Source of the DNA: an uncultured Chloroflexia bacterium
Lineage (GTDB): Bacteria; Chloroflexota; Chloroflexia; QHBQ01; JADMIH01
Assembly (NCBI GenBank): GCA_963797095.1
Contig: CAWCNY010000003.1
Coordinates: forward strand, 160,001 to 224,000
Length of the DNA: 64,000 bases
Direction of reading: 5' to 3'
The notes under the pieces: model-generated
Seen by the model: the letters and a program-made list of their open reading frames with translations, nothing else
Databases searched by the model: none
Told to the model about the DNA's origin: nothing
Translations under genes and position numbers: made by a program
Part shown: in pieces, positions 7,761-22,559 of the stretch
Numbering within the stretch: the stretch's first letter is position 1
Layout: every line of letters starts with the position of its first letter

Positions 7761-9983
7761 TCAGACGAAGGCCACAGGTACATCGGGAGTGGGCTCCAGC
7801 TGGAAGGGGGGGTCGCTGTGGCCGCTGTGGCCGCTGTGGCCGCTGTGGCCGCTGTGGCCGCTACCCCCACCGAGGGGCGCTACGTCGAGTCGAATTTCGT
7901 CACCGCTCCGTTGCAGCGACAAGTCGTAGCGCTCACCCCACACTTGCAGGTTCTTCACCCGCGCGCCTTGCCAGCCGGAGGGGAGTTGGGGCCTCACCAG
8001 CACCACACCGCGGTCGGGGTCGGGCAGGAGCCGGAACCATCCCTGCACAGCGAGCCAGTTATACGCCGCACTGGACCAAAGCTGCAGGAAGCAGGGCCTG
8101 TAAACGCCTCGCGTCACCTCAAACTCCGGAATGGCCCAGGGCATGCCCCGGTCGCACAGTTCGGCGATTCGCTGCAAGTACCACAGGCCCCGGTCCGGCC
8201 TCCCGTACTGGAACTCCGCCAGCGCCACAATCGCATTCCCCACAGGCATCACGAAGTCGCTCGTGCCGGGGTGGATTATCCCATTGGGGCCGGTGTGCTC
8301 AGACCCTTCAACTTTCGCGAACAGAGAAGCGATGCGTACAGCGTCCCGTGGGTTCGAGCCGTCGAGCACGCCCATCTCCATCATCACGTAGCTCTCCGCC
8401 GGTTCTTCGGGCCACACCGAAAGGTCCCGCTCGATCCTCCAGACGTATTCGCCGCGGTCTGCCACCCAGAAGTGCTCGTCTATGCTCTCGCGCACCTTCA
8501 CACGCACTTGCTCGCACATGGCTGCCGTGCCGGGATCGCCCGCCGAGCAGGCCAGGTAAGCCAGCGACCGCAGCCCCTGGTGCAGCGCAGCCGCCACGTC
8601 CAGCTTCCTGCCGCGTCCCGCGCTCCTCAATTCGAGCAGCCCAGGGCCGTCCGGGAGGAGGGTGTGCTCAGGATCGCACTCGCCAAGCAGGTAATCGAAT
8701 ATGCCCTCTTTGCACAAGCCGTACATCTCCTGGAGAAAGGCCCTGTCGCCCGTCCACCTGTAGGCGCGCTCAACCGACGTGACGAATTGGGCGGTCTCGA
8801 TCGTGTTGCCCGGATTGAAGAGCCTTCCCGTCTGCGTGATTTCGTGCGGTATGCGCCCTCCCTGCCGGCGGGCCATGTTGGCGAGCAGCCTCAAGTTCGA
8901 CAAAACGGCGTCGGTCTGCCCAGCCATCAGCAGACCACTGACGCTGTAGTAGGTGTCGCAACCGAAGTACCATGCGAAGCTCGGGAGTCCCGCCACCGCG
9001 CCACGCGCCACGCCAGGCATCTCCAGGGTCAGCATGTCCATGCAGACGTTCTGAAGGGCGTAGGCTCGGTCGATGCCCGGCTCGGGCGTGTCGACCCTCG
9101 GTGCGCCGCCTATCAGCATTTCCTGTCGGGCCACTTTGGCGCTCAGGAGGGGGTCGTACTCCGCAAGCAGGCCGGTTGCCTTCCGGCGGGCGCATGCCAC
9201 CCCGTCCATCCCACCCACCAGCGCGAAGCGCAGCGTGCGGCTCTCTCCAGGCGCGAGCGCTACATCATAATCGAGGCGGCCGGTTACGCCGGCGCCTTGC
9301 AGGGCGGAGGGATCGGGCAGGATGCCGCCGTGCTTCACCCCCTCTTCGCCGCGCAAGGAGCTTGTGCGCTCAGGCCCCCACAGGTCGGGGCCGGTGCTGT
9401 GCCTGCAAGGGGCGTGGTCGCAGAGCATCGCGCCGCTCCACGCGTGGTGCCCGCCGTCCCATGCCACGATACCGCCCCACTCGTCCACGAACTGCGCCTC
9501 GTCTGCCCTGTCGGGCCAGTAGCTCCACCAGGCCCCCTGTATATCCCACCGCACGAGCCAACTGACTGTCAGCCGGAGGGGCCCTTCTGCTCTATTGTGC
9601 AAGGTGAGGTCGAGCAGCACGCCAGGCTCGTGGTCGGGCACGAAGGTTCGCTGGACGGCCTCGACCGCAGCGCCGCCGACCTGCAGGAGGAACTCGCGCT
9701 CCGCCCTGCCGGGCTGCATCCTGAAGCTCGTGCAGGCGGGCCCCCACAGCCAGCTGGTCTCGCTATGCTCGTCACCTGCCGGCGAGAGGCCGAACCAGAA
9801 GCCGTCGGCCAGCTTGACCGGCGGAGTCCATATTCCGCCCATCTCGCCCGGCAGGTGGTGGCCCAGGTCGGGGAACCCGCCGTGTAGCGAGCCTATGAGG
9901 TAGCATCGCCTGCCCGTCGCGGCGAACAGTCTGTTCAGGTCGTTTGTTACCGGTTCGTCGAAAAGAGACACAGAGACAAGCAA
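7761..9983 (-). CDS. (alpha/alpha)6 glycoside hydrolase, glycogen-debranching/amylo-alpha-1,6-glucosidase-like
   Basis: AGLPSFAWYFGCDTYY, GRIPHEI, NPGNTIETAQF, PEF...CFLQLWSSA; N-terminal GHHLPGEMGGIWTPP. Confidence 0.78.
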   Translation of the reverse strand: MLVSVSLFDEPVTNDLNRLFAATGRRCYLIGSLHGGFPDLGHHLPGEMGGIWTPPVKLADGFWFGLSPAGDEHSETSWLWGPACTSFRMQPGRAEREFLLQVGGAAVEAVQRTFVPDHEPGVLLDLTLHNRAEGPLRLTVSWLVRWDIQGAWWSYWPDRADEAQFVDEWGGIVAWDGGHHAWSGAMLCDHAPCRHSTGPDLWGPERTSSLRGEEGVKHGGILPDPSALQGAGVTGRLDYDVALAPGESRTLRFALVGGMDGVACARRKATGLLAEYDPLLSAKVARQEMLIGGAPRVDTPEPGIDRAYALQNVCMDMLTLEMPGVARGAVAGLPSFAWYFGCDTYYSVSGLLMAGQTDAVLSNLRLLANMARRQGGRIPHEITQTGRLFNPGNTIETAQFVTSVERAYRWTGDRAFLQEMYGLCKEGIFDYLLGECDPEHTLLPDGPGLLELRSAGRGRKLDVAAALHQGLRSLAYLACSAGDPGTAAMCEQVRVKVRESIDEHFWVADRGEYVWRIERDLSVWPEEPAESYVMMEMGVLDGSNPRDAVRIASLFAKVEGSEHTGPNGIIHPGTSDFVMPVGNAIVALAEFQYGRPDRGLWYLQRIAELCDRGMPWAIPEFEVTRGVYRPCFLQLWSSAAYNWLAVQGWFRLLPDPDRGVVLVRPQLPSGWQGARVKNLQVWGERYDLSLQRSGDEIRLDVAPLGGGSGHSGHSGHSGHSGHSDPPFQLEPTPDVPVAFV
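7815..7862. repeat. 9-bp tandem repeat (GCTGTGGCC)x5 encoding (GHS)5 near the C-terminus of the hydrolase
   Basis: Read directly; translates to SGHSGHSGHSGHSGHS on the minus strand. Confidence 0.9.
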
Positions 9984-10024: not shown

Positions 10025-12361
10025 TTATGGAGCGAGTCCCGGGCGACCTGAGGCGAGCGGCAGCGGCCTCGCTTCGGCGGCCATCGGTTGGTGGTCCTCA
10101 GTGGAGAAGACCAGGTTGAGCGATTCGTCGCGCATTCTCATGCCCCTCACTTCGACCCGCCCCACGCCGGCGGGCAGGACGGCTCTGGAGGGGTCGAAGT
10201 GCCCTTCGGCGCTCACCTCTATGCCCAGGAGCGTCTGAAGCAGGAGGAGCGGAGCGCCAGCTGCCCAGGCCTGGGGGCTGCAGCTGACAGGATAGGCGGC
10301 GGGTGCGCTCTCCTCTTGCGCACCCTTTCCCCTCGCGAAGCCGCAGTAGAGCTCTGGCAGGCGATAGTCCGGGAAGGTGGCCGCGGCGTCCAGGATCTGG
10401 CGGGCTATTTGTTGCATCTCTGCTTCGAAGCCGTACCGCCGCAGCCCGGCCACCAGGATGGCGTTGTCGTGGGGCCACACCGAGCCGTTGTGGTAGCTCA
10501 TAGGGTTGTACGTGGGGTCTTCCGCGCTGATAGTGCGCACCCCCCACCCGGATAACATGTCGTGGCGCATCAGCCGGGCCACCACCCGCGCAGCCCGCGA
10601 TTCCTCGACGATGCCTGTCCACAAGCAGTGCCCAACGTTGGAAGTTACCGCCCTCACCTGGGCCTTGGATCGATCCAGCGCATGCACGTAGAATCCCTCT
10701 TCTTCCCACCAGAAGTCGCGGTTGAACTCCTCTTTGAGGCGGGCAGCCTGGTGTTCGAGCCTGGCGGACAGGCCGCCCTGTGCTTGCTCATGCACCGCGC
10801 CGCCGTAGCGCTTCAGCGTTTCGGCCACGCCCAGCAGAGCGGCGTAATAGTAACCCTGTACCTCGACAAGGGCGACCGGAGGTTCCGGCCAGGGCCCGAA
10901 GGGGCCGCCCAGCGACTCGTCGGTGTCCTTCCACCCCTGGTTGCGTATGCCGCGCCCGGAGCGAGATTTGTACTCGATATAGCCGTCGCCGTCCAGGTCT
11001 CCCCAGCGCCAAGCCCAATCGAGCGCTCGCCGCACGCTCCCCCATAGCTCGTCGAAGAGGGGCTGGCCGCCGGTCCATTTGACCGTTTCGGAGAATAAGA
11101 TCATGTAAAGGAGGGTGCTGTCCACCGTGCCATAGTATGGGCTGTGCGGCACCTCGCGCGCCAGGGCCATATCGCCCCGCCGAAGCTCGTGTAATATCTT
11201 GCCCGGCTCGCCGTCGCGCCAGTCGTCCACAGCAGTAGCCTGGTACGAGGAGAGGACGCGCAGAGTATCTACGGCTATCTGGGGATTGAGGACCAGAGTT
11301 TCGAGGGCGGTAATCAGGCTGTCGCGCCCGAAGAGAGTGAAGTACCAGGGGAGGCCCGCCGTCACCACGAGGCCGTGCGGCTCCCACTGCAACAGCGAAC
11401 GCAGGTCGAGGACGCTCGTTTCGAGTATGCGGTTGAGGGCGTAACTATCTGTGTCGATGCGGGTACAGGCTCTTTGCCACTCGGTGAAGACGCCTCGCGC
11501 CCTCGCCACCTGCTCCTTGAAGGTCAGCGCCTGTGCTAACTCCCCGGACTGTGGTCTCAGGCCCCCGGCCGGCAGCTCCGGGCTGTCAGGTTCCGGCACA
11601 AGGCGCAGGTGCATGGTGACAGGTTGTCGAGGTGCAAGGGCCAGTTTGTAATGCAAAGCGACCTCTCGCATCTCCCTGCCGGTCGGGGCATCAAGGGTGG
11701 TCACCTCCTCCCAGGTCACCGGCGCTGCATCGCACGTAAAGAGGAGCACCCTGGCGGCGAGCGGATTCGGACCGGGAGCCGCCTGGCGAGTTGAAACGGC
11801 CGGCTGCGCGCGAACCAGCACGGTAGTGCCTTTAGTGCTGTTCGTGGCTCCAACCGGCCACGCACCTTCGCCAACTCGATGGAAGCCATCGTGCACCCGG
11901 ATGCTCACCGTGGGGACAGGAGTGGAGCGCGTGAGGCCACGTAACTCAAATATATCCGCAAAGTCCGCTCCCACCAGCAGCGTGATTTCGACTTCCAACC
12001 CGGTGGGGTTATAGTTGGTGAACTCAATGCTCTCGACAAGCCCGCGCTCGATATATCGACGGCGCGTGATGCCCAGCGCGTGACCGAGCTGCCCGGGGAC
12101 GGAAGAGCCACTACGCTCCTTCAAGCCGAAGTGTATCGCGCTGAGCCGGAAGGTGGCAGCTATGTTGTAGTCGGTGGTGTAGCTCAGCGAGAGAGGTCTC
12201 TCGCCGCCCACAAGGAGTTGCAGCTTGTTGAGATAGCGGGTGTCGTGCAGGTACAGCCCGTAACCGTCGTTGCCGTCCGGGCCGTTCGCTACATCTCCCG
12301 AATGGTCGCTTATCAGGAGTGTGAAGTCGTCTTTTAGCGTAACTGCAGTCGCACCGGTCAT
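10025..12361 (-). CDS. Amylo-alpha-1,6-glucosidase / glycogen debranching enzyme family (GDE_N + GDE_C)
   Basis: GLYLHDTRYL, ADFADIFELRG, AGLPWYFTLFGRDSLI, YYGTVDST, NQGWKD, SYHNGSVWPHDN, LPELYCG, PQAWAAG. Start moved to ATG 12361 to avoid overlap with lacI. Confidence 0.9.
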   Translation of the reverse strand: MTGATAVTLKDDFTLLISDHSGDVANGPDGNDGYGLYLHDTRYLNKLQLLVGGERPLSLSYTTDYNIAATFRLSAIHFGLKERSGSSVPGQLGHALGITRRRYIERGLVESIEFTNYNPTGLEVEITLLVGADFADIFELRGLTRSTPVPTVSIRVHDGFHRVGEGAWPVGATNSTKGTTVLVRAQPAVSTRQAAPGPNPLAARVLLFTCDAAPVTWEEVTTLDAPTGREMREVALHYKLALAPRQPVTMHLRLVPEPDSPELPAGGLRPQSGELAQALTFKEQVARARGVFTEWQRACTRIDTDSYALNRILETSVLDLRSLLQWEPHGLVVTAGLPWYFTLFGRDSLITALETLVLNPQIAVDTLRVLSSYQATAVDDWRDGEPGKILHELRRGDMALAREVPHSPYYGTVDSTLLYMILFSETVKWTGGQPLFDELWGSVRRALDWAWRWGDLDGDGYIEYKSRSGRGIRNQGWKDTDESLGGPFGPWPEPPVALVEVQGYYYAALLGVAETLKRYGGAVHEQAQGGLSARLEHQAARLKEEFNRDFWWEEEGFYVHALDRSKAQVRAVTSNVGHCLWTGIVEESRAARVVARLMRHDMLSGWGVRTISAEDPTYNPMSYHNGSVWPHDNAILVAGLRRYGFEAEMQQIARQILDAAATFPDYRLPELYCGFARGKGAQEESAPAAYPVSCSPQAWAAGAPLLLLQTLLGIEVSAEGHFDPSRAVLPAGVGRVEVRGMRMRDESLNLVFSTEDHQPMAAEARPLPLASGRPGLAP

Positions 12362-12426
12362 TTCCAGCCTGCTCCTCCCTACTCTTCTTCGATCCTCCAG
12401 GCATCTCTGCCCACTGCCCACTAACC

Positions 12427-13611
12427 TTATGCGGAGGCTCTCACGATCAGTTCCGGCTCCACAAGCACCTGCATAGGGCCGATCCATTTGACGGTCACGC
12501 TCGCCTCTCCCGGGCTTTCCGCGCTGAATTGCCTGCGTTGCTCCGCCGTAATCGTATCGGCCACCAGACCCACCTTCTTCTTGCGCCGTGCTTGGTTGTC
12601 TATGATCGACACAAGGAGACCGAGCAGGATTTCCGCGATTGAGCCAAGCGGCTGCCGAACTGTAGTGAGCGGAGTCCGAAGATATGCTGCGAATGGAAGA
12701 TCGTCGAAGCCTGTGACCGCTATTGCTCCTGAGCCTGAGCCGGGACCCAAAGTCGGCTCCGCCCCGACCGCTATCCCGCGATCCTGCAAGTCTTGAATCA
12801 CCTGCATGGCAAGGCGGTCGTTGGCGGCCAGGATGGCTGTAGGCCGCGCGTCGTGTGTGACGTTGCCGGTGCTATCAGTGCCAGCGGTGTCAAGCGAGAG
12901 AAGGTGGGCAATCGCTTCCCTGGTGTTTGCCTGTTCCTGCAAGTCTACGATCACCAGGCGCTCGTCAAGAGGCAAGCCATGATTTTTCAAGCCTTCAACG
13001 TAGCCATCATAGCGGTACAGCGAGTAAGATGTGTTGAGAGGTCCGCTCAAATAGGCAATCGTCCGGTGGCCCTTGCCGACCAGGTAATCGATGACCGCAC
13101 GGATGCCTGCCCTGCTGTCCAGGTCCACCAGCGGGTAGTAGAGCCCCTCATAATCTGCGGTACGCCCGAAAGCAACGAATGGAATGTCAAGCGACTGGAG
13201 CAGATCGATCCGCTCGTCCTGGGGTTTGATGTCGGCAATGATAATACCATCCACCCGCCCGCTTCCGGCCAGCTCGCGATATATTTGGCTCGTATGGCTT
13301 GGAGTATCGGCAATGGTTGCCAGCAAGCTCAGGTTGTGGCGAAATGCGGAGAGGGTCAGCAAACCCAGGAACTCTTTGAAGAAGGGCTCCGACTCGATAT
13401 GCCCGCGAATCAGCGGAGCAAAAGCCACGGTGTCGGTGCGCCGCCTTTGTAAGCTGCGTGCCGCGGCGCTCGGGTAATAATTTAGAGACCGGGCGATTTC
13501 GATGACCCGCTGGCGCGTCTGTTCATTCACGTCGCTGAAGCCGTTGAGCGCGTGCGAAACCGTGGTGATAGATACGCCAGCTTCTCTGGCAACATCGAAG
13601 ATGGTACTCAT
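12427..13611 (-). CDS. LacI-family transcriptional regulator
   Basis: N-terminal HTH TIFDVAREAGVSITTVSHALN, hinge AARSL, GFDDL...LTTVRQP. Confidence 0.96.
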   Translation of the reverse strand: MSTIFDVAREAGVSITTVSHALNGFSDVNEQTRQRVIEIARSLNYYPSAAARSLQRRRTDTVAFAPLIRGHIESEPFFKEFLGLLTLSAFRHNLSLLATIADTPSHTSQIYRELAGSGRVDGIIIADIKPQDERIDLLQSLDIPFVAFGRTADYEGLYYPLVDLDSRAGIRAVIDYLVGKGHRTIAYLSGPLNTSYSLYRYDGYVEGLKNHGLPLDERLVIVDLQEQANTREAIAHLLSLDTAGTDSTGNVTHDARPTAILAANDRLAMQVIQDLQDRGIAVGAEPTLGPGSGSGAIAVTGFDDLPFAAYLRTPLTTVRQPLGSIAEILLGLLVSIIDNQARRKKKVGLVADTITAEQRRQFSAESPGEASVTVKWIGPMQVLVEPELIVRASA

Positions 13612-13741
13612 ATCGAGCCCTTCGCTGAGCTAGCGAATCAGCAGCCAGCTATCACTTTCCGGCCGGTCGCTGCGTGCAGGAGACTGGCCCTGACTATAGA
13701 ATCAACCTCAGGCGGTACGATCTTCTCGCGTTAATTTGGTC

Positions 13742-13794
13742 ACCAAAACATTTTGGACCAGCAGTATTATTGACGAAAATGTAGCCCCTGTCAA
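13742..13794 (-). promoter_or_regulatory. lacI promoter plus second operator copy (ACCAAAACATTTTGGA)
   Basis: Minus-strand TTGACA (13789-13794), 17-bp spacer, AATAAT, followed by an operator-like palindrome at 13742-13757 that matches 775-790. Confidence 0.65.
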
Positions 13795-13846
13795 GACCTG
13801 AGGATGAGCCTGTAGTGTGCAAACTCTGGTCCATGTGTGGGCAGCC

Positions 13847-14047
13847 TTATGCAGCTTGGCTATCGCTGTCATTATCCATGATCAGGAACCTGGGTGCCTC
13901 TCTCCATGCTGTTGCCTCCCTCGGCTGCTGGGCCGTCCATGCGTCTGTTGGAGAGCGGGTGACGCCGAAGTGGACCACACGCCGGGAGCCAAGTTCTATC
14001 GTGAAGAAGCTGAACAAGTGCCTGAAGAACAGGTCATACGTTGGCAA
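13847..14047 (-). pseudogene. Integrase-core (rve) transposase fragment
   Basis: FFTIELGSRRVVHFGVTRSPTDAWTAQQ.RE...PRFLI.D.D matches the middle of DDE integrase-core transposases; both ends missing. Confidence 0.75.
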
Positions 14048-14231
14048 GTACGTCTAGCGCCGAGACCCGAGCCATCAATAGTCCACACGTTTTCTGCATG
14101 CGCTAACGAAGTGCTGTCTCTGGCAGTCGAATTGTTGCAGTAGAGGCTCTTCGTATCCCGATGCCCCCGACTATTCAACGCTCTCCATTACTGACGAAGA
14201 GTGTTGGTAAGCCCTACTCTAGCGAACTTGT

Positions 14232-14500
14232 TCAATTGTTGCAACACTGCCCCAACAACCAACCAACGGCTGATCGGGGCACGTCGGTCCCCGTCTCGCG
14301 GGCGGCTTCGGCCGCGGCACGCACTGTCTGCCAGGCCCGCTGTACCTCCGGCCCCAGCTGCAGCGCCCACTGCTCGACCTCCGACCAGGCAACCTGTGGC
14401 GTGGTGCGGCGCAGATCCGAGAGCACCAGGTTCAGGCAGTCGCGGAAGTGGCGTTCGCTCTCGCCCAACGCGTACCCTCCTCCAGCCACTTGCCTACCCC
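14232..14500 (-). pseudogene. Possible C-terminal fragment of a nucleotidyltransferase-family gene
   Basis: GESERHFRDCLNLVL...VAWSEVEQWALQLG resembles the 'SERQWRDV...LDWAYLERWA' tail of TA-type nucleotidyltransferases. No credible N-terminus. Confidence 0.35.
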
Positions 14501-14818
14501 TGTGCCTTTGGCCAATGCTGGGAATCGAGCAGCGAGTACTGAAAGAACGCACTTCTCCCATTTGGAGACGCGGCGTGATCGAGGGACTTTGCGCTGCTGG
14601 AGCCGTGGGATTGCGCTTCGCTCCATTTAGCGCAGCAGGAGTATTTCGATATCCATCTGTCGGTCAGACAGGCGGCGGGCAGCGAGCACGCCAACAACCA
14701 ACTCGAGGATGTAAACCAGCACCTAGATACAGACGCGCATGGGACAAGCATAAGCCGACTTCCGCGCCTATACAAGGCTCTATGTCCGCCGGATGCATAT
14801 TTGCACGACTACAACGTC

Positions 14819-14847
14819 TTGACAGATGCCCATTGAGGTGATAATAT
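14819..14847 (+). promoter_or_regulatory. Sigma70-type promoter of the nrtR-led operon
   Basis: TTGACA (14819-14824), 17-bp spacer, TG-n-TAATAT (14842-14847), AT-rich downstream. Confidence 0.7.
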
Positions 14848-14888
14848 AACTATAGATAATTCAAATTAGCTTCAGTGGAAGAATCAAC

Positions 14889-15656
14889 ATGAAAGTAGAC
14901 GGCGACCACAACATCAATAGGAATGAGGAAGAGGCATTACAGGCGAACGCCGTGCTGGCGGTCGATGTGGTGCTTTTCACGGTGCGGGAAGCCGAGGACC
15001 TTGAGGACGCCTGGCAGGTGCTGCTGGTCAAGAGCGGCAAGCGAGTGTTCGAGGGAAGGCGCGCTCTGCCCGGTGTCATAGTGCGCCCGAAGGAGAGATT
15101 TGAAGAGGCCGCGCGGCGGGCGCTGCGCACAAAGACCGGGTTGGATGCCACCGACTGGTATCTTGAGCAGTTGGGGACCTGGGGCGAGCCTGAGAGGGAC
15201 ACGCGCGGAAGGGTGGCTTCAGTGGCATACTTCGCGCTGGTGCGCTCTGACCACCTGGTGCTGGCGGCGGGGGATATGATGCTCGATGCCGAGTGGGTGC
15301 CCGTTCGGCGCGCGCTTCGGGAGGAGTTGGCGTTCGATCACTCGGAGATGTTGAGGGCGGCGGTGGCGCGGGTCAGGTCGAAACTGCGGTATTCGTGGGT
15401 GGCGTTCCAACTATTGCCCGACCGCTTCACCTTGCCGGAGATGAGGGCGGTGTATGCCGCGATCCTCGATCCTTCGGTGGCGCGGCTCAACAGCAGCAAC
15501 TTCAAGCGCGCTTTCGGTGAGTTGTTCGAGTCGGGTGCGCTTGTGCCTACAGGGGAACGCGCCGATATCCAGGGTCGTGGCAGGCCGGGCGACCTCTACC
15601 GCTTTTCGGGCCCGCTGGCGGGAACGCGGGAGCGCGAGTTGCCCTGGCACAGTTAG
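14889..15656 (+). CDS. nrtR: NrtR-family regulator (Nudix-like sensor + C-terminal winged HTH)
   Basis: AVDVVLFT, VLLVK, ALPG, LEQLGTWGEPERDTRGRVASVAYFALV, LAFDH, then wHTH FTLPEMRAVYAAIL...NFKR...GRPGDLYRF. The Nudix box is degenerate. Confidence 0.88.
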   Translation: MKVDGDHNINRNEEEALQANAVLAVDVVLFTVREAEDLEDAWQVLLVKSGKRVFEGRRALPGVIVRPKERFEEAARRALRTKTGLDATDWYLEQLGTWGEPERDTRGRVASVAYFALVRSDHLVLAAGDMMLDAEWVPVRRALREELAFDHSEMLRAAVARVRSKLRYSWVAFQLLPDRFTLPEMRAVYAAILDPSVARLNSSNFKRAFGELFESGALVPTGERADIQGRGRPGDLYRFSGPLAGTRERELPWHS

Positions 15657-15729
15657 GATTTCGGATTGCGGATTTGATTATGGAGGGGTGGATTTTGACT
15701 AGGTCATATTCTAATTCGTGAGGTGTGAG

Positions 15730-16563
15730 ATGGTAGAGTTTCAGGTGGTTGGAGGGACGGTGATGGGGCGGGAGCACTACCGGATGCGGGCTAACAGGCA
15801 GGATGCGTTCCGTATCGAGAGGCTGGATGGAATTGCCGTGGCGGTGGTGTGCGACGGGTGCGGCGACCCTGCAAGCCCACATTCGGAGGTAGGTGCCGTG
15901 CTGGGGGCGCGCACCATCGCGCACAGGCTGTCTGCACTGCTGGCCGCCGATGAGATGCTTCTATCCACACAGGATGGGATGGAAAAAGTGTTGGAGAGAG
16001 TGCGGAGAGACACGCTCGTTAGCCTGAGAAAGTTAGCCAGGACGATGGGCGAGGACCCTGAGGAGGCGATATGCGATTGCTTCCTGTTCACTGTAGTGGG
16101 GTGCGCTATCGGTGAAACGCACGCGGCGTTCTTCGCGCTGGGCGATGGGGCAATCATCGCCAATGGGGTGGCTATTGTGCTTGGCCCCTATGAGAACAAT
16201 GCGCCGCCCTATCTAGCCTACGGGCTGCTGGGAAAAGGCATAGAGCAACATGATCTGGGCTTCAAGGTGCATCGCCATTTGCGCACCTCTGAGCTTGACA
16301 ATTTTCTAATTGGCACGGATGGAGTTTGCGACCTGATTAAGGACGATGGGCAAACACTACCCGGCACTACGGAGCCTATCGGGGGCGTGGAGATGTTCTG
16401 GCACGAAGCGATACACTTCTCCAATCCGCATGCGCTCGGCAATCGCCTGCGCCTGATCAACACCGATCAGGTCAGGATAGATTGGCAGAGCCACAGGAAA
16501 ACGACTGATTGGGGCAGGCTGGCGGACGATACTACCCTGGTGGTGGGGAGGCGGAGTGGATAG
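15730..16563 (+). CDS. PP2C-like protein phosphatase (YegK/TerY-P type)
   Basis: GREH...NRQDAF, VVCDGCG, SEVGA, LGDG, IGTDGV, DDTTLVV. Confidence 0.88.
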   Translation: MVEFQVVGGTVMGREHYRMRANRQDAFRIERLDGIAVAVVCDGCGDPASPHSEVGAVLGARTIAHRLSALLAADEMLLSTQDGMEKVLERVRRDTLVSLRKLARTMGEDPEEAICDCFLFTVVGCAIGETHAAFFALGDGAIIANGVAIVLGPYENNAPPYLAYGLLGKGIEQHDLGFKVHRHLRTSELDNFLIGTDGVCDLIKDDGQTLPGTTEPIGGVEMFWHEAIHFSNPHALGNRLRLINTDQVRIDWQSHRKTTDWGRLADDTTLVVGRRSG

Positions 16564-16581
16564 TGCGTGCTGCTTACTTTT

Positions 16582-16643
16582 TTGCGTATTGCGTATTGCG
16601 TATTGCGTATTGCGTATTGCGTATTGCGTATTGCGTATTGCGT
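16582..16643. repeat. Heptamer tandem repeat (TTGCGTA)x~9 between phosphatase and kinase genes
   Basis: Read directly from the sequence. Confidence 0.95.
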
Positions 16644-16666
16644 CTCCGTATCGGTAGGGTGAGGCT

Positions 16667-18592
16667 ATGAAGAGTGTTTATGTGGGTCGGCGTGAGATCG
16701 GATTGTCGAGCAGGAACGCCATCGGGAAGGGCGGCGAGGCTGACGTGTATAGCATTGGAGGCGGGCTGGCTCTGAAAGTGTTCAAGACGCCTGACCACCC
16801 CGACTTGCAGGTGCTCGATCCCGCTGAGAGGCAGGCGTTGGCCTGCGCGGCGCAAATGCGCATCGAATTGCACCAGCACAAGTTGCCCGCCTTCCCTCAT
16901 GGTCTGCCCGCACCAGTGCTTGCCCCGGTAGAGTTGGCTTACGACCGCAGGGGAAGTGGGGCGCGCATCGTCGGGTATACGATGCCGTTCATCAAGGGAG
17001 CAGACCTGCTGTTCCAGTACGGCAAGCGGGGGTGGAGGGAGTCGGCGTTAGGGGCGGGCATCAATGAAGATAGAGTGCGCGATCTGCTGCTGGAGCTTCA
17101 CGCGGCAGTGACAGGCATCCACGCGGCTGGGGTGGTGATCGGCGACTTCAACGACCTCAATGTGCTGGTGAAGGATGGCCGGGTGTATATGGTAGACGCC
17201 GACTCGTTCCAGTACGGCGGTTTCCTGTGCAACACATTTCAGTACCGCTTCCTGGACCCACTCCTTTGCGAGGCGGTAGGCACGCACCCTGAGATGGTCA
17301 GGCCGCACAATATCGGGTCGGATTGGTATGCATACTCGGCGATGGCGATGCAGTGCCTGTTGTACGTCGATCCGTATGGCGGGCTGTACAGGCCTGCCGA
17401 CCCTTCACACAAAGTGGCGGAGGCGCTGCGCCCGCTCCAGAGGATCACGGTGTTCAACCCTGAGGTGCAGTACCCCAGGGCGGCGCTGCCGATCTGCATG
17501 CTGCCCGACGACCTGCTTCAGCACCTGTACGCGACGTTCGAGCGCGACGTGCGTGTCGAGTTCCCGGCGGCGCTTCTGGACGGAATGAGGTGGACCAAAT
17601 GCTTGCAGTGCGGCCAGCGGCACGCCCGGCAGGTATGCCCGTTCTGCACCGGACAGACGGGGGCGGTGCTCGCGGACGCGGCGCGCATACAGTCGCAGGA
17701 GGTGCGCGGGCAGGTGATCGCAACCCTTGTGTTCAGGACCGAAGGGCTGGTGGTGGCCGCATCGGCGCAGGGTGGTCGCTTGCTGTGGCTGTATGAAGAA
17801 GGAGGTGAGTTGAGGCGTGAGGATGGATCACCTGTAACTCAGGGAAGCGCCCGGCCCGGCATGCGGGTCAGCTTGAGCGGCACTAGCACGCATCTGGCTA
17901 TGGGAGGCGTGGGAGTCACGCTCAGTCCGGACGAGGGGCCTCAGCGGCGGCTGGCCGAGAACTTGGGTGGCGAGACGATGCTGGCCGCAAACTCGCGCCA
18001 CGCCTACTGGATCGAGGGTGGGTACCTGTATCGGGAGGGCGCGCTTGGGCTTGGGCCGTTCCTGATCGGTGAAGTGCTGGCGAACGCTACCCATCTGTGG
18101 GTTGGCGAAACGTTCGGCTTCGGGTTCTACAGGGCCGGAGGCATTTCGGGCGCGCTGGTGTTCGATGCCGAACGGGCCGGGATCAACGACCGGGTGGGGG
18201 TGCAGATCCCACGCGGGCAGATAGTTGACGACGAATGTGTGCTCGGCGATGACAGGTGCTGGTTCATGGTCAGCGCCCAGGAAGGAGGTAGTATAATCAA
18301 CTATTGCACGGTAATTATGCGCGCTGGCAGGGTGATTGCTGCACACAAAGCGAAGGATGGCGACGGGTCGTGGCTGGGGTCGATACATGGGCACTGCGCG
18401 GCAGGCCCGGCCCTGCTGGCCCCCACCGACGCGGGGATTGTGCGCCTGGAAGCGCACGGCGCCTCCATCCAGGAGACGAAAACTTTCCCCGATACAGCAT
18501 CCTTTGTACAAGGTGGAAGCAGGCTCTTTGGAGCACCCAATGGAGTATATGTGATTAGCTCGAACGAGATAAGACTGTTGCGGATGGCATGA
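16667..18592 (+). CDS. Ser/Thr protein kinase (YegI/TerY-P type) with Zn-ribbon and beta-rich C-terminal domain
   Basis: IGKGGEADVY, LALKVF, catalytic loop VVIGDFNDLNVLV, VDADSFQ, SDWYAY; CLQC...CPFC after the kinase domain. Confidence 0.88.
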   Translation: MKSVYVGRREIGLSSRNAIGKGGEADVYSIGGGLALKVFKTPDHPDLQVLDPAERQALACAAQMRIELHQHKLPAFPHGLPAPVLAPVELAYDRRGSGARIVGYTMPFIKGADLLFQYGKRGWRESALGAGINEDRVRDLLLELHAAVTGIHAAGVVIGDFNDLNVLVKDGRVYMVDADSFQYGGFLCNTFQYRFLDPLLCEAVGTHPEMVRPHNIGSDWYAYSAMAMQCLLYVDPYGGLYRPADPSHKVAEALRPLQRITVFNPEVQYPRAALPICMLPDDLLQHLYATFERDVRVEFPAALLDGMRWTKCLQCGQRHARQVCPFCTGQTGAVLADAARIQSQEVRGQVIATLVFRTEGLVVAASAQGGRLLWLYEEGGELRREDGSPVTQGSARPGMRVSLSGTSTHLAMGGVGVTLSPDEGPQRRLAENLGGETMLAANSRHAYWIEGGYLYREGALGLGPFLIGEVLANATHLWVGETFGFGFYRAGGISGALVFDAERAGINDRVGVQIPRGQIVDDECVLGDDRCWFMVSAQEGGSIINYCTVIMRAGRVIAAHKAKDGDGSWLGSIHGHCAAGPALLAPTDAGIVRLEAHGASIQETKTFPDTASFVQGGSRLFGAPNGVYVISSNEIRLLRMA

Positions 18593-18665
18593 GGTCAAAC
18601 GCGACCACAAGATAACCGGCATTTGAACGACCATGCGTGAAGCATGGCGAAAAGGAGAGAATGAA

Positions 18666-19790
18666 GTGACAACCAATGTAAAGCACGTCGCCGTGAACAA
18701 CGGGATCGCGGCACCCACAGTGCAACACGCCTCATGGCTCCCAGTCCCGCCGCACTTCGACCCCTCGAACACGGACAAGGTGTGGGCGGTCGATTACCTG
18801 GCGCTGGAGCGCACCGGGGAGGCCTGGGCGAAGTCGCACGACATCGCGCCAGCAGCCTCGGATGCTATCAAGACTGCACTGATACTGATCGACGTGCAGA
18901 TCACTTTCTGCACACCGGGATTCGAGTTGTTCGTGGGAGGCAGGTCGGGACGAGGGGCGGTCGAGGACAACGTGCGGCTGTGCGAGTTCATCTACCGCAA
19001 CATGAAGCAGATCACACGCATCTTCCCGACGATGGATACGCACACACAGTTCCAGATATTCCACCCCCTGTTCTGGGTGAACGACGCGGGCGAGCACCCT
19101 GCACCCTACACGGTGATCACACATGCCGATGTAGAGGGCGGAGTGTGGAAGGTGAACCCACGGGCCACCTACTCGCTCGGCGGCAACTACCTGGCGCTGC
19201 AAAAGCATGTTGAGTACTACACCGAGCAGCTTGAGCGGACTGGCAAGTATGCCCTGATCGTGTGGCCACCACACGCGATGCTTGGTGGGATCGGGCATGC
19301 CCTGGTGCCGTCGGTGCACGAGGCGGTGGAGTTCTTCAACGCGGCGCGGGCCTCGCAAACCGGGTTCGAGATCAAGGGCGGGCACCCGCTGACCGAGAAC
19401 TACTCGGTGCTGTCGCCTGAGGTAATCACTACATCAGGTGGTGCGCCTCTGCCGAACGCGGGCAAGAACTACAGGTTCATCGAGAAACTGCTAGATAGCG
19501 CATCGGGCTTCGATGTGATCGGGATCACGGGGCAGGCGCTTAGCCACTGCGTGGCGTGGACAATCGACGACCTTCTGAAAGACATCTTGCAGAAGGACCC
19601 GGCAGCGGCCAAGAAGGTGCACATCATCCGCGATTGCTCGTCGCCCGTTGTTACCCCAGGGTACGACTTCACGGACGATGCTGAGGCCGCCCTCAAGCGG
19701 TTCGAGGAGGCAGGCATGCGCATCGTGCGCTCCACCGACCCCATCACCGAGTGGCCTGGATATACTGAGGCTTTGCAGAAGAACGGTTGA
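18666..19790 (+). CDS. Nicotinamidase-like cysteine hydrolase (isochorismatase superfamily)
   Basis: LILIDVQITFC (catalytic Asp), TMDTH, WPPHAM, IKG, GQALSHCV (catalytic Cys). GTG start after AAGGAG RBS. Confidence 0.85.
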   Translation: MTTNVKHVAVNNGIAAPTVQHASWLPVPPHFDPSNTDKVWAVDYLALERTGEAWAKSHDIAPAASDAIKTALILIDVQITFCTPGFELFVGGRSGRGAVEDNVRLCEFIYRNMKQITRIFPTMDTHTQFQIFHPLFWVNDAGEHPAPYTVITHADVEGGVWKVNPRATYSLGGNYLALQKHVEYYTEQLERTGKYALIVWPPHAMLGGIGHALVPSVHEAVEFFNAARASQTGFEIKGGHPLTENYSVLSPEVITTSGGAPLPNAGKNYRFIEKLLDSASGFDVIGITGQALSHCVAWTIDDLLKDILQKDPAAAKKVHIIRDCSSPVVTPGYDFTDDAEAALKRFEEAGMRIVRSTDPITEWPGYTEALQKNG

Positions 19791-19800
19791 TTTCTTGTAC

Positions 19801-19933
19801 ACGAAGAGGCGAAGGAAGGCGAAGGGCACGAAGGTTCTTAAGGATATGAGGCAGTGCCGAGCATGTGTGTGAGCGAATAAGAATAATCTTTAATAAAACT
19901 TCGGGATCTTCGCGTTCTTCTTCGCTTCTTCGT
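19801..19933. repeat. Imperfect inverted repeat built of CGAAG units (REP-like element)
   Basis: Left arm ACGAAGAGGCGAAGGAAGGCGAAGGGCACGAAGG pairs with right arm CTTCGGGATCTTCGCGTTCTTCTTCGCTTCTTCGT. Confidence 0.7.
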
Positions 19934-19979
19934 ATTCAAATGAAACCCGCTGAGGGCAAGATAATAAGGAGATAAGGAA

Positions 19980-20786
19980 ATGAATAATAACGGAACACCG
20001 GATGTTAGCAGCCTGTTTGCACAGGCGCACGGATACGGCGAGCTTTCGGACGAGGCTTACCAGGCGCTTTCGGTGGCCGACCTGGGGGCGCAGATACAGG
20101 CGGCGATGGGTGTGCCCGCGCTGAACGTGCCCACCAGCCGGGGCGTGCTCCTCACGATGCTGATAGACGATTCAGGCTCGATACGGTTCAAGGGGAACGA
20201 GCAGGCGGTGCGGGACGGCTACAACGAGATCGTGAAGGCGATGAGGGAATCGAAGCAGGCCGACGAGATGCTGGCGACCACGCGCTACTTGAACGGGCGA
20301 GTGCTCTACCCGTACCAGTTCCTGGCGCACGTGCCCCTGCTGGACAAGGGGAATTACCAGGCCACGGGCGGCACCCCCCTTTACGACCAGGCGATAGCCA
20401 CCCTTGGGACGGTGCTTGCCAAGACGCTGGAGTTCGGGCGGAACGGCACTCCTGTCAACACGGTGACGCTGATTGTTACGGACGGCAACGACGAAGGCTC
20501 GACCAGTACGGCCCGGCAGGTCTACCCCATCGTGACCGACATGCTTGCTCAGGAGTGCCACATCGTGGCGGGCATGGGCATAGACGATGGATCCACCGAT
20601 TTCCGAAGGGTGTTTCGAGAGATGGGCATCCCCGACCGGTGGGTGCTGACGCCGCGCAACGACCCCAAAGAGATCAGGCGGGCCTTCCAACTCTTCTCCC
20701 AATCGGCGATGAGGGCGTCATCCAGCGGGGTGCACTTCAGCGCAACAGCCCAGTCGGGGATGTCGATGGGTGGGTTTGGTGGCTAG
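19980..20786 (+). CDS. TerY-like von Willebrand factor A (vWA) domain protein
   Basis: MIDAS DDSGS, GGTPLYD, IVTDGND; RBS AAGGAG. Confidence 0.87.
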   Translation: MNNNGTPDVSSLFAQAHGYGELSDEAYQALSVADLGAQIQAAMGVPALNVPTSRGVLLTMLIDDSGSIRFKGNEQAVRDGYNEIVKAMRESKQADEMLATTRYLNGRVLYPYQFLAHVPLLDKGNYQATGGTPLYDQAIATLGTVLAKTLEFGRNGTPVNTVTLIVTDGNDEGSTSTARQVYPIVTDMLAQECHIVAGMGIDDGSTDFRRVFREMGIPDRWVLTPRNDPKEIRRAFQLFSQSAMRASSSGVHFSATAQSGMSMGGFGG

Positions 20787-20848
20787 TAGTCGGTAGTCGG
20801 TAGTCGGAGAGAAGCAGGAACCGAAAACTTCTGACTACCGACTACCAT
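20784..20848. repeat. Composite heptamer/REP element, copy A
   Basis: (GGTAGTC)n, core GCAGGAACCGAAAACTTC, then (GACTACC)2. Related copies at ~29108, ~41027 (inverted) and ~61205. Confidence 0.8.
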
Positions 20849-20864
20849 GTGATATATTGCCTCT

Positions 20865-21365
20865 ATGGCACGATTGACTATCGCACGGGACGGTATAGCG
20901 GAATATCTAAGGCTCATCGAAGAGACGCCGGGACGCGTCCCGGCGTCTACTTCGTGGTTGGATGATGCTCTACTGGCGCAGGCTCCGGGCGGGCGCGGGT
21001 GGTCGGCGGCGCAGGTGCTGGCACACATCAGGGGCTGCGACGAGGTTTGGTCGTACAGCATTTACGCCATGCTGGTGGAGAAAGAGCCTGTGCTGGCGGC
21101 GGTCGATGCGCGCAGGTGGGCAGAGGTCGCCGGATATGAAACGATGGGTTTTCATGAAGCGTTGCAAACGTTTGCGCTCAAGCGAGCGGAGTTGGTAAGG
21201 GTGCTGCGCGGCCTGCCGCAGGAGGCGTGGGGAAGGACCGCCAATATAGGTGGGCGAGCGCACAGCGTGTTCAGCCAGCTCAGAAGGATGGGCAAGCACG
21301 AAGTCGAGCATTGCGGGCAGATTGAGGAATTAACAAAATGGCCCGGATCTAGTGATGAACCTTGA
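20865..21365 (+). CDS. DinB/YfiT-like metal-binding protein
   Basis: WSAAQVLAHI...D, F..KR.E, HEVEHCGQI. Confidence 0.85.
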   Translation: MARLTIARDGIAEYLRLIEETPGRVPASTSWLDDALLAQAPGGRGWSAAQVLAHIRGCDEVWSYSIYAMLVEKEPVLAAVDARRWAEVAGYETMGFHEALQTFALKRAELVRVLRGLPQEAWGRTANIGGRAHSVFSQLRRMGKHEVEHCGQIEELTKWPGSSDEP

Positions 21366-21390
21366 CAACGGTACTATCAACGTGTAAAAT
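21362..21390 (+). promoter_or_regulatory. Sigma70 promoter of the hrcA operon
   Basis: TTGACA (21362-21367), 17-bp spacer, TAAAAT (21385-21390). Confidence 0.85.
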
Positions 21391-21400
21391 TATTTTGTGG

Positions 21401-21427
21401 TTAGCACTCCATCAAGAAGAGTGCTAG
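21401..21427. promoter_or_regulatory. CIRCE element (HrcA operator)
   Basis: TTAGCACTC-N9-GAGTGCTAG, one mismatch to consensus, upstream of hrcA. Confidence 0.97.
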
Positions 21428-21485
21428 CATGCACAAATCTCGCAAGGCTCAGGCGTGAAACGCCAAATCTATAGTGCAAACAAAC

Positions 21486-22559
21486 ATGGACCAGACCGGC
21501 GATATTCGAATTAGCGACAGGCAGCGCATCATCCTCAGCATTGTGGTCGAGGAGTATGTCACAACCGCGCGGCCTGTGGCGTCCGAGCAGATTGTGAATA
21601 ACTACAATCTGGCGGTATCGTCGGCCACGGTACGCAACGACTTGGCCGAGCTTGAGCGGCTGGGCCTTATTGTGCAGCCGCATACCAGCGCTGGGCGCAT
21701 ACCCACCGACAGGGGTTACAGGTATTTCGTGACCAACCTGATGCACCCGGCGTCGCTGTCGCAGGACGAGCAGCGAAAGATCAGGCACCAGTTCCACCAG
21801 GTGGAGTTGGACGCCGAGGAATGGGTGCGGCTGGCCGCGTCGGTGCTGGCACGCACCGTCCATAGCGCGGCAGTGGCGACCGCTCCACGCAGCATCGAAG
21901 TGCGGTTAAAGCACTTTGAACTGCTGGCTATTTCGGAGTCGCGCTTGCTGCTGGTGCTGGTGGGCGATGAAGGCTCGGTCACACAGCAGATGCTGACGGT
22001 CAATGAGGCCGCCGACCAGGGCGAGTTGAGCACGCTATCGAATATGCTGAATACTTCCCTGGCGGGCATGGGCGGCAGTGAGATCGGAGCCTGGACCGCC
22101 AAGGATGAGAATGTCGCGCCCCTGGGCGACCTCGCCCCAACAGTATTGAAAACGCTGGCATCGATGTTGCAGAAGCTGGAACGACCAGAGTCGTCGAACG
22201 TGTACCACGAAGGACTTAGCCACATTTTGGAGCAACCGGAGTTCCGCCAGCCTGAGAGGATGCAGCGAGTGCTTGAGATGTTCGAGCAGGGCGACGTATG
22301 GTCTACCCTGATTACTTCGATGGCGGGCCGCGAAGGCGTGCAAGTGATCATCGGAGAAGAAGCGGCTGCCGAAGGGATCGCCAGTTGCAGCGTAGTGCTG
22401 GCGCGCTACGGACTGGAAGACCGCATGACCGGCATTCTGGGCGTGGTCGGCCCCATGAGGATGCCCTACAGCAGGTCGGTTTCGACCGTGAGCTATATGT
22501 CGCAGTTGCTGAGCGACCTTTTGTTGCGGGCATACAACCCCTATCGGGGTAGCGAGTGA
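21486..22559 (+). CDS. hrcA: Heat-inducible transcription repressor HrcA
   Basis: SSATVRNDLAELE..GLI.QPHTSAGRIPTDRGYRYFV; GVVGPMRMPY. Confidence 0.97.
   Translation: MDQTGDIRISDRQRIILSIVVEEYVTTARPVASEQIVNNYNLAVSSATVRNDLAELERLGLIVQPHTSAGRIPTDRGYRYFVTNLMHPASLSQDEQRKIRHQFHQVELDAEEWVRLAASVLARTVHSAAVATAPRSIEVRLKHFELLAISESRLLLVLVGDEGSVTQQMLTVNEAADQGELSTLSNMLNTSLAGMGGSEIGAWTAKDENVAPLGDLAPTVLKTLASMLQKLERPESSNVYHEGLSHILEQPEFRQPERMQRVLEMFEQGDVWSTLITSMAGREGVQVIIGEEAAAEGIASCSVVLARYGLEDRMTGILGVVGPMRMPYSRSVSTVSYMSQLLSDLLLRAYNPYRGSE

Follow-up and report, generated by a model that had tools for sequence, protein, structure and literature searches.

We analysed a window of 64,000 nucleotides (C3:160001-224000) of G000, a genome of 6.0 Mb and 93% completeness whose closest named relatives are Chloroflexia metagenome-assembled genomes. 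The window holds a cassette of five genes in which a nicotinamidase-like amidase lies between the kinase and the vWA gene of a predicted TerY-P-type triad (vWA protein, PP2C-type phosphatase and Ser/Thr kinase), with the gene of an NrtR-family regulator at its head. We give about an even chance to the reading that this is an NrtR-controlled cassette for the salvage or clearance of nicotinamide, to whose enzyme a TerY-P-type triad would be attached. The linkage of the triad to the amidase recurs in many phyla and, in diverged form, in huge phages.

Conservation of the cassette

For the linkage counts, the kinase had 400 relatives in metagenomes, and the loci of the best 80 were used. A locus was eligible for a given partner when it offered at least 1.5 kb downstream for the amidase, at least 3 kb downstream for the vWA gene, at least 1 kb upstream for PP2C and at least 3 kb upstream for NrtR. 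The amidase accompanies the kinase in 56/57 eligible loci (directly downstream in 52), the vWA gene in 42/43 and PP2C in 56/56. All three partners occur together in every kinase locus with both flanks (34/34), and the order PP2C-kinase-amidase-vWA is conserved. An NrtR gene stands beside the kinase in 23/41 eligible loci, co-directional in 13 and divergent in 10. The first-pass annotation, made from the sequence of the window, had proposed the five families as one operon; they do form a conserved combination, the NrtR and amidase genes being found next to the triad in other genomes.

Carriers of the cassette belong to Chloroflexota, Cyanobacteriota, Actinomycetota, Entotheonellaceae and the bacteria of the Candidate Phyla Radiation (CPR), and its components are ~35-60% identical across distant phyla. 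The CPR loci are L029/G447 (Parcubacteria), L026, L043 and L030, with one Parcubacteria genome of ~0.9 Mb, a retention that is notable for reduced genomes. Of the 25 genomes of the genus that were searched, 6 have the amidase, G000 included (6/41 over all relatives searched). L010 and L009, which lie on long enough contigs, share the complete set of five genes and its order; the genome behind L009 is G022, flagged as unpublished, so that any use of this row needs the permission of its depositors. Two further genus loci, cut by contig ends, agree with the five-gene order as far as they are readable, and L011 has the amidase without partners within the 11.6 kb fetched.

The reverse count was made from the amidase, for which at least 597 loci were found in species-representative genomes. 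Among the best 80 of these, 60 had adequate flanks: 19 carry the kinase and the vWA gene, 3 the vWA gene only, 38 neither (a few of these stand-alone rows being short-flanked) and 0 the kinase only. Each of the three genomes with the vWA gene only encodes a full-length kinase elsewhere. A vWA profile found a match in 0/5 genomes with a stand-alone amidase and in 5/5 positive controls. In a quick maximum-likelihood tree of 79 amidases (a careful tree search did not finish), module-linked and stand-alone forms intermix, with at least 10 label changes, 3 of which are forced by well-supported branches. Given 34/34 kinase loci with all partners, against 38/60 amidase loci without kinase and vWA, the triad needs the amidase and the amidase does not need the triad. 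Because the amidase occurs without the triad in many organisms, the triad looks like a regulatory add-on to a working enzyme and not like a part of catalysis.

One locus has a different composition: in L081:8364-11020 (Oscillatoriales cyanobacterium USR001), next to a divergent NrtR gene, PP2C is followed directly by the amidase, with a canonical NrtR box upstream, and the kinase and the vWA gene are absent within 10 kb.

The amidase

The AlphaFold model of the amidase (predicted local distance difference test score, pLDDT, 75.6) was compared with known structures by VIA-align. The top 28 matches are all isochorismatase-like hydrolases (Z 10.6-13.7), and the next match has Z 8.3. The best is the long-form nicotinamidase of Drosophila (327 aa), with Z 13.7 and a root-mean-square deviation of 4.4 over 206 residues; the other 27 isochorismatase-like chains score Z 10.6-12.8, with bacterial and yeast nicotinamidases at Z 11.0-12.4.

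Aligned as a profile with E. coli PncA, the amidase reaches an hhalign probability of 88% (E 3.1e-6), with WPPH paired with WPDH, KGGHPLTENYSVL with KGENPLVDSYSAF and SHCV with DYCV. Residues D87, D135, H137, H144, H214, K248 and C306 are invariant among 14 amidase sequences. The alignment places K248 and C306 at the KG..PL..SYS motif and the catalytic Cys motif of E. coli PncA, and D87 lies within a stretch that weakly matches residues 3-34 of M. tuberculosis PncA (E 0.019), which completes the predicted catalytic Asp-Lys-Cys triad. A candidate for the metal site that distinguishes nicotinamidases within the family is formed by H214, whose WPxH motif aligns with WPDH of E. coli PncA, together with the invariant D135-x-H137 and H144; D135, H137 and H144 may correspond to metal ligands of PncA. 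The amidase was first annotated as nicotinamidase-like, with an intact Asp/Lys/Cys triad; the alignment to PncA recovered nicotinamidase motifs, and the three residues are invariant.

The protein is ~150 aa longer than classical PncA, through an N-terminal extension and insertions. It had no match at E ≤ 0.001 in Pfam, NCBIfam or PADLOC, and its profile met chance-level matches alone among PDB sequences. Its own family is large: all 8000 scored candidates fell at E ≤ 0.001, it has more than 8000 relatives, and identity across phyla is 55-61%. In the ESM Atlas, name-level leads only were obtained, to vWA and isochorismatase/nicotinamidase clusters.

Some relatives carry additional segments. A ~230-aa domain without a Pfam match was noted at L102, L124, L153 and L177 (~11900-12600) and in the proteins P0017 and P0031. 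In these two proteins, which are 582-aa forms, it precedes the amidase within one polypeptide as an N-terminal fusion, and P0038 and P0046 have the same length as these fused forms; alternatively, the ~230-aa domain is a separate stretch between kinase and amidase. A protein of 198-201 aa, likewise without a Pfam match (cluster c50), lies between kinase and amidase in the Pseudanabaena-type loci L040, L045 and L049 (~9370-9970), and a cluster c50 protein takes that position in L148, L159, L160 and L170 too.

The phosphatase, the kinase and the vWA protein

The phosphatase matches PF13672 with E 1.3e-16 and 61.2 bits against a cut-off of 24, and its Asp motifs D29, D46-G47, D143, D201-G202 and D270-D271 show no variation among the 13 orthologues aligned. 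A BLASTP comparison of the window PP2C with E. coli PphC, which we presume to belong to PF13672, found zero similarity.

When aligned with 13 orthologues, the kinase matches E. coli YegI with an hhalign probability of 98.1% (E 8e-14) over residues 20-324, which include the zinc ribbon. The kinase is thus a predicted homologue of YegI through its kinase domain and zinc ribbon, in line with the YegI-like label it had been given at first. Its invariant residues are K37, D160, N165, D177/D179 and the cysteines C312, C315, C324 and C327; the ribbon has the pattern CxxC...CPxC and gives weak matches to the Nop10 zinc ribbon. Pfam and PADLOC returned no match for the kinase at E ≤ 0.001, and NCBIfam returned lanthionine synthetase models over the catalytic loop (residues 124-185) with E 3.1e-5 and 7e-4, far below their cut-offs. 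Against PDB sequences, the kinase profile found solely catalytic-loop and zinc-ribbon matches, at E ≥ 0.017.

A HMMER search with the C-terminal 307 residues of the kinase covered 1.84 billion cluster representatives and matched 550 of them. Among the 150 best matches, the domain takes the C-terminal position in proteins of ~552-667 aa or lies in shorter proteins that are mostly probable fragments. This family-specific domain is the obvious candidate for a sensor.

The model of the vWA protein (pLDDT 84.5) was matched by Foldseek to integrin I domains, CMG2 and other vWA structures in the PDB (E ~1e-7, probability 1.00). The residues of its metal-ion-dependent adhesion site (MIDAS), D63, S65, S67 (DxSxS), T132 and D168, are invariant among 17 sequences, so that the MIDAS already noted in the first-pass annotation is present in full. 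No match was found for this protein at E ≤ 0.001 in Pfam (including VWA), NCBIfam or PADLOC, and its profile returned nothing at E ≤ 1 among PDB sequences. Compared with E. coli YegL it gave an hhalign probability of 15%, which is no credible relation. Single-protein searches of PDB sequences with the kinase, the amidase and the vWA protein gave weak matches at best.

NrtR and its operators

The regulator matches NUDIX PF00293 (E 1.3e-10, residues 37-156) and NrtR_WHD PF21906 (E 2.2e-13, residues 172-239). With NCBIfam NF050029, the ADPR-responsive repressor, it scores 116.4 bits, below the cut-off of 400; on these matches the window NrtR is a predicted member of the family and not the curated equivalog. 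Read by eye, its Nudix box is RALRTK where the Nudix consensus is REUXEE, as would suit a sensor without catalytic activity. A second NrtR of G000, which heads nadB-nadC-nadA, shares 67.5% identity with the window NrtR.

In the window, a 25-mer that overlaps the -10 element and extends downstream is unchanged in the relatives L013 and L010 although the flanks differ, and it is a candidate operator. It does not contain the GT-N7-AC core of NrtR sites. In a scan of G000 it was unique bar one 20/25 match, on contig C2 at ~592251 (L179:3752-3776), ~30 nt upstream of uvrB; that uvrB gene (1224 aa) contains an interrupting intein, which has a LAGLIDADG domain.

Elsewhere the candidate operators are of the established kind. 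NrtR operators are described in PMC2330246 as 21-bp palindromes with a GT-N7-AC core, and in cyanobacterial loci two 21-bp palindromes that fit this core lie in the promoter before PP2C. The fetched loci were scanned for AGTGT-N7-ACACT, one mismatch being allowed, in front of PP2C or of an NrtR gene with the same orientation. Boxes were found upstream in 14/20 eligible genome loci and 32/52 eligible metagenome loci (46/72 in total), and 88/109 box matches in those loci fall inside the short upstream windows. Exact AGTGT-N7-ACACT boxes also precede amidase genes that have no adjacent kinase or PP2C gene, in L071:1003-1019, L032:1035-1051 and L035:3058-3074. As boxes precede such genes, the amidase may join the NrtR regulon even outside the cassette.

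NAD-related genes and huge-phage versions

We looked for genes of nicotinamide adenine dinucleotide (NAD) metabolism around the loci. The fetched flanks, to a distance of up to ~10 kb, contain a nicotinate phosphoribosyltransferase of the QRPTase type in 11/80 amidase loci and in 7/21 kinase loci with long flanks, and its recurrence near the amidase spans several phyla. In G000 itself, pncB lies 270 kb from the cassette and no PF04095-type enzyme was found. It had been argued from the window that an operon without pncB is not a standard salvage operon; this holds poorly, as a nicotinate phosphoribosyltransferase gene stands beside the cassette or the amidase in many other loci and G000 has pncB elsewhere. 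Because G000 also has two other isochorismatase-family genes, the cassette amidase is a candidate for its nicotinamidase, not the sole one; one of these genes, C6:552868-553416 (L092), contains a TAG stop within the matched region and is possibly broken.

In eight cyanobacterial genome loci, one or two ADP-ribosylglycohydrolase genes are placed between PP2C and the kinase. Together with the canonical NrtR boxes in other organisms, these genes strengthen the ADP-ribose theme that the first-pass annotation had put forward. In none of the cassettes examined did we see an NADase gene.

A tblastn search of deposited phage genomes with the amidase found four records at 30-34% identity, three of which are uncultured huge phages of 462-595 kb. 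In LR756500.1 (L182) the order is amidase, vWA-like protein, PP2C_2 and a 561-aa Pkinase protein; this phage amidase reaches PF00857 with 28.7 bits, above the cut-off of 27. The cluster is preceded, at a distance of 3.3 kb, by an NAD synthase gene, and a sigma-70 gene also lies next to the cluster. LR745208.1 (L181) has all four families within 7 kb, and LR756511.1 (L180) has the amidase and the vWA protein. The phage vWA homologues match Pfam VWA weakly (E 7.7e-4 and 1.4e-3), and tblastn with the vWA query found none among the phage records at 1e-5. Since a diverged version is present in huge phages, the four-part association is old and crosses the boundary between cell and virus. A kinase scan of IMG/VR gave a further 13 loci on contigs of ~42-545 kb, at least one of which is the same contig as a metagenome locus; these loci are not counted among the viral copies.

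Proposed mechanism and alternative readings

In the salvage or clearance reading, consumption of NAD would cause ADP-ribose to accumulate, and NrtR, if it behaves as its family does, would leave the promoter. The long-form nicotinamidase, a class to which fold and motifs point, would convert nicotinamide to nicotinate, which a nicotinate phosphoribosyltransferase (PncB) would route through the Preiss-Handler pathway back to NAD. Such salvage is the most economical output, because pncB lies beside the cassette or the amidase elsewhere and is present, apart from the cassette, in G000. The kinase, PP2C and the MIDAS-bearing vWA protein would form a reversible phosphorylation switch that gates or reports on the amidase, a role suggested by their obligate genomic linkage, and that would set its activity, assembly or stability. 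The MIDAS of the vWA protein could plausibly recognise a ligand that is acidic or phosphorylated, and the private C-terminal domain of the kinase may act as the sensor. The linkage across phyla and huge phages suggests that the recycling of vitamin B3 may be under the control of protein phosphorylation.

Several observations weigh against this reading. It is built on gene linkage, boxes in relatives, folds and motifs, and all functions are predicted. By structural Z the nicotinamidases are tied, within ~1-2 Z, with other isochorismatase-like enzymes, Pfam PF00857 gives the window amidase 12.7 bits where the cut-off is 27, and the ~150 aa that it has beyond classical PncA might reflect a substrate that differs from nicotinamide or is larger. 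NrtR is absent from 18/41 kinase loci with at least 3 kb upstream. No AGTGT-N7-ACACT box or inverted repeat of the canonical type was found before the window cassette, so that NrtR control in the window rests on the 25-mer as a putative operator. Finally, the full-length kinase was found in G000 only among 401 sampled genomes of the phylum, and a patchy distribution of this kind (6/25 in the genus, 1/401 in the phylum) is more readily explained by an accessory or conflict role than by one in core metabolism.

This last point leads to a reading that we regard as unlikely, in which the cassette is a conflict module, anti-phage in cells and counter-defence in huge phages, whose triad would activate the amidase on sensing infection or a depletion of NAD+. 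Nicotinamide would then be diverted to nicotinate and withheld from the opponent's rebuilding of NAD+, or product inhibition of an NADase would be relieved, proposals that we hold as tentatively as the module itself. According to PMC11090510, TerY-P triads are found together with restriction-type systems, and modules like TerY-P also serve as defence systems on their own. The patchy occurrence and the ~35-60% identity across distant phyla together suggest horizontal spread of the cassette, and they fit such a module, as do the ADP-ribosylglycohydrolase genes inserted in some versions and the diverged phage copies, namely the clusters in LR756500.1 (near NAD synthase) and LR745208.1 and the amidase with vWA protein in LR756511.1. 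It is improbable, but would follow from this reading, that cells and huge phages share a four-part device in which NAD+ cleavage or infection turns a nicotinamidase on and thereby decides who rebuilds NAD+; such a device, if real, would be the first defined enzymatic output of TerY-P triads. The defence role advanced in the first-pass annotation found no support in the searches, however: none of the five proteins matched PADLOC at E ≤ 0.001 (the best match in PADLOC-DB 2.0.0 was MkoA, E 0.0031, over the catalytic loop of the kinase), and around the cassette the window holds housekeeping genes (for a glycogen debranching enzyme, LacI and DinB, and hrcA-grpE-dnaK). No NADase gene accompanies the cassettes examined, and the retention of the cassette in a 0.9-Mb CPR genome, with a salvage gene often nearby, argues for metabolism.

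It is also rather doubtful that the amidase is something other than a nicotinamidase, acting on nicotinamide mononucleotide, nicotinamide riboside, NAD or an unrelated amide, so that the triad would control another step. The extra length with its N-terminal extension and insertions, the sequence profiles that barely reach PncA or PF00857, the structural tie with N-carbamoylsarcosine amidase, RutB, maleamate amidase and others, and the ~230-aa domain fused to or preceding some versions would all suit another substrate. The best structural match is nevertheless a long-form animal nicotinamidase of 327 aa, WPxH and KG..PL..SYS align with E. coli PncA, and a gene for nicotinate phosphoribosyltransferase, which uses the product of a nicotinamidase, recurs beside the amidase in several phyla; NrtR-pncA pairs are moreover an established regulon type in Table 1 of PMC2330246. 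Chance juxtaposition of five genes that share no function would be allowed by gaps of 40-189 nt and by an amidase family that also occurs without the other genes, but it is contradicted by the linkage counts (three partners in 34/34 kinase loci, across many phyla and phages, in conserved order) and we reject it as next to impossible.

Features of the locus

The cassette consists of five uninterrupted open reading frames, all on the + strand, which span 14889-20786 and are separated by 61, 103, 40 and 189 nt in order (Table 1); that the five genes are intact and co-oriented, as first annotated, is correct. The annotated promoter was recovered by a consensus scan, and its -35/-10 layout also aligns in genus relatives and before the second NrtR operon of G000. 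Because the scan gave 5 promoter-like sites in total against 2.8 ± 2.0 in shuffles, a single such site is weak evidence alone. No terminator-like site on the + strand was found within 13600-21600 by the consensus scan, and Rfam gave zero matches at E ≤ 1 in 13600-21500, hence no NAD riboswitch.

Table 1 Features of the cassette and its right-hand neighbour, with positions in the window.
Feature	Position	Strand	Length	Basis and remarks
Sigma-70-like promoter (TTGACA, 17 nt, TAATAT, TG extension)	14819-14847	+		Consensus scan, 10/12
Conserved 25-mer, candidate operator	14842-14866	+	25 nt	Overlaps -10 and extends downstream; identical in L013 and L010
NrtR-family regulator, Nudix-like (degenerate catalytic box) and winged-helix domain	14889-15656	+	255 aa	Pfam
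PP2C-type Ser/Thr phosphatase	15718-16563	+	281 aa	PF13672 (PP2C_2)
YegI-like kinase (~1-300), zinc ribbon, C-terminal domain of ~300 aa	16667-18592	+	641 aa	hhalign
Long-form nicotinamidase-like cysteine amidase, isochorismatase-like fold	18633-19790	+	385 aa	Model and hhalign
vWA-fold protein, full MIDAS, N-terminal helical extension, conserved GGFG tail	19980-20786	+	268 aa	Model
DinB-family gene	20865-21365			Between the vWA gene and hrcA

To the left of the cassette lie a LacI-family gene and a gene of the glycogen-debranching type on the opposite strand. The spacer of ~1.3 kb that follows them (13612-14888) contains pieces of ~70-175 nt that recur elsewhere in G000 with 70-81% identity: the piece at 13865-14039 is repeated at three other places in G000 (73-78% identity), and that at 14499-14813 at two places on contig C1. 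The first-pass annotation had seen a mobile-element scar here; the recurring pieces speak for it, but a domain search found no transposase domain in the spacer. A 226-aa open reading frame at 14161-14841 is without any family match. On the right, the hrcA locus named in the same annotation is present as hrcA-grpE-dnaK, but it does not adjoin the cassette, since the DinB-family gene intervenes.

Comparison with known systems

TerY-P was reportedly defined by Anantharaman et al. in 2012. To our knowledge, TerY-P triads, including YegI/PphC/YegL of E. coli, are widespread and have no established target, and the cassette offers what would be the first concrete enzyme partner for a switch of this type. 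As the triad is tied here to a single enzyme whose chemistry is known, the substrate of the kinase, the ligand of the vWA protein and the physiological output become directly testable. If the salvage or clearance reading is true, cyanobacteria, Chloroflexota and CPR bacteria with reduced genomes may control NAD salvage at a post-translational level as well, the amidases form a large family of long-form nicotinamidases (more than 8000 relatives) that Pfam does not see, and the huge-phage copies may tie this chemistry to the depletion or reconstitution of NAD+ during infection. The parts are known (NrtR-pncA regulons, YegI-type TerY-P, nicotinamidases), but we have not found their fixed union described. 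A full-text literature search returned no paper that joins the triad with a nicotinamidase or isochorismatase; it did not cover the TerY-P-defining paper or supplements, where a mention is possible.

The quoted definition of TerY-P in PMC11090510 is a vWA protein, a PP2C and a Ser/Thr kinase with a C-terminal zinc ribbon. The triad of the window, which the first-pass annotation had identified as TerY-P, fits the definition in that quotation, with a predicted vWA fold that has a MIDAS, a PP2C of PF13672 and a kinase-zinc ribbon protein; all three component types of E. coli YegL / PphC (YegK) / YegI are present, and the kinase appears homologous to YegI. The differences are several. The window cassette fixes a nicotinamidase-like gene between kinase and vWA and is headed by NrtR, its gene order is unlike that of the E. 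coli locus, its vWA protein has no credible relation to YegL and its PP2C no BLASTP similarity to PphC, and its kinase has a private C-terminal domain of ~300 aa.

Classical PncA (E. coli, M. tuberculosis, yeast Pnc1) and the long-form animal nicotinamidases resemble the amidase in fold and in the Lys, Cys and WPxH motifs. The window family differs from them in being ~347-385 aa long, against ~185-215 aa for bacterial PncA, in falling below the Pfam threshold and in being partly embedded in cassettes.

In the NrtR regulons of the NAD salvage I type (nrtR-pncA, pncB; Roseiflexus sp. RS-1, Rodionov et al. 2008, PMC2330246), NrtR likewise heads or faces a gene of the nicotinamidase type, GT-N7-AC palindromes of 21 bp likewise stand before the cassette in other organisms, and G000 also has NrtR-nadBCA and pncB. 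The same source gives the response to ADP-ribose as shown for two members of the family. In passages of that paper on these regulons, kinase, phosphatase and vWA genes are not listed, whereas the window has a divergent, long-form amidase invisible to Pfam and a promoter without the canonical box. The nrtR-draG locus of Streptomyces, as listed in PMC2330246, links NrtR to an ADP-ribosylglycohydrolase, as in the cyanobacterial cassettes; as listed there, it differs from the cassette in lacking the triad and the amidase, while the window is without a glycohydrolase gene.

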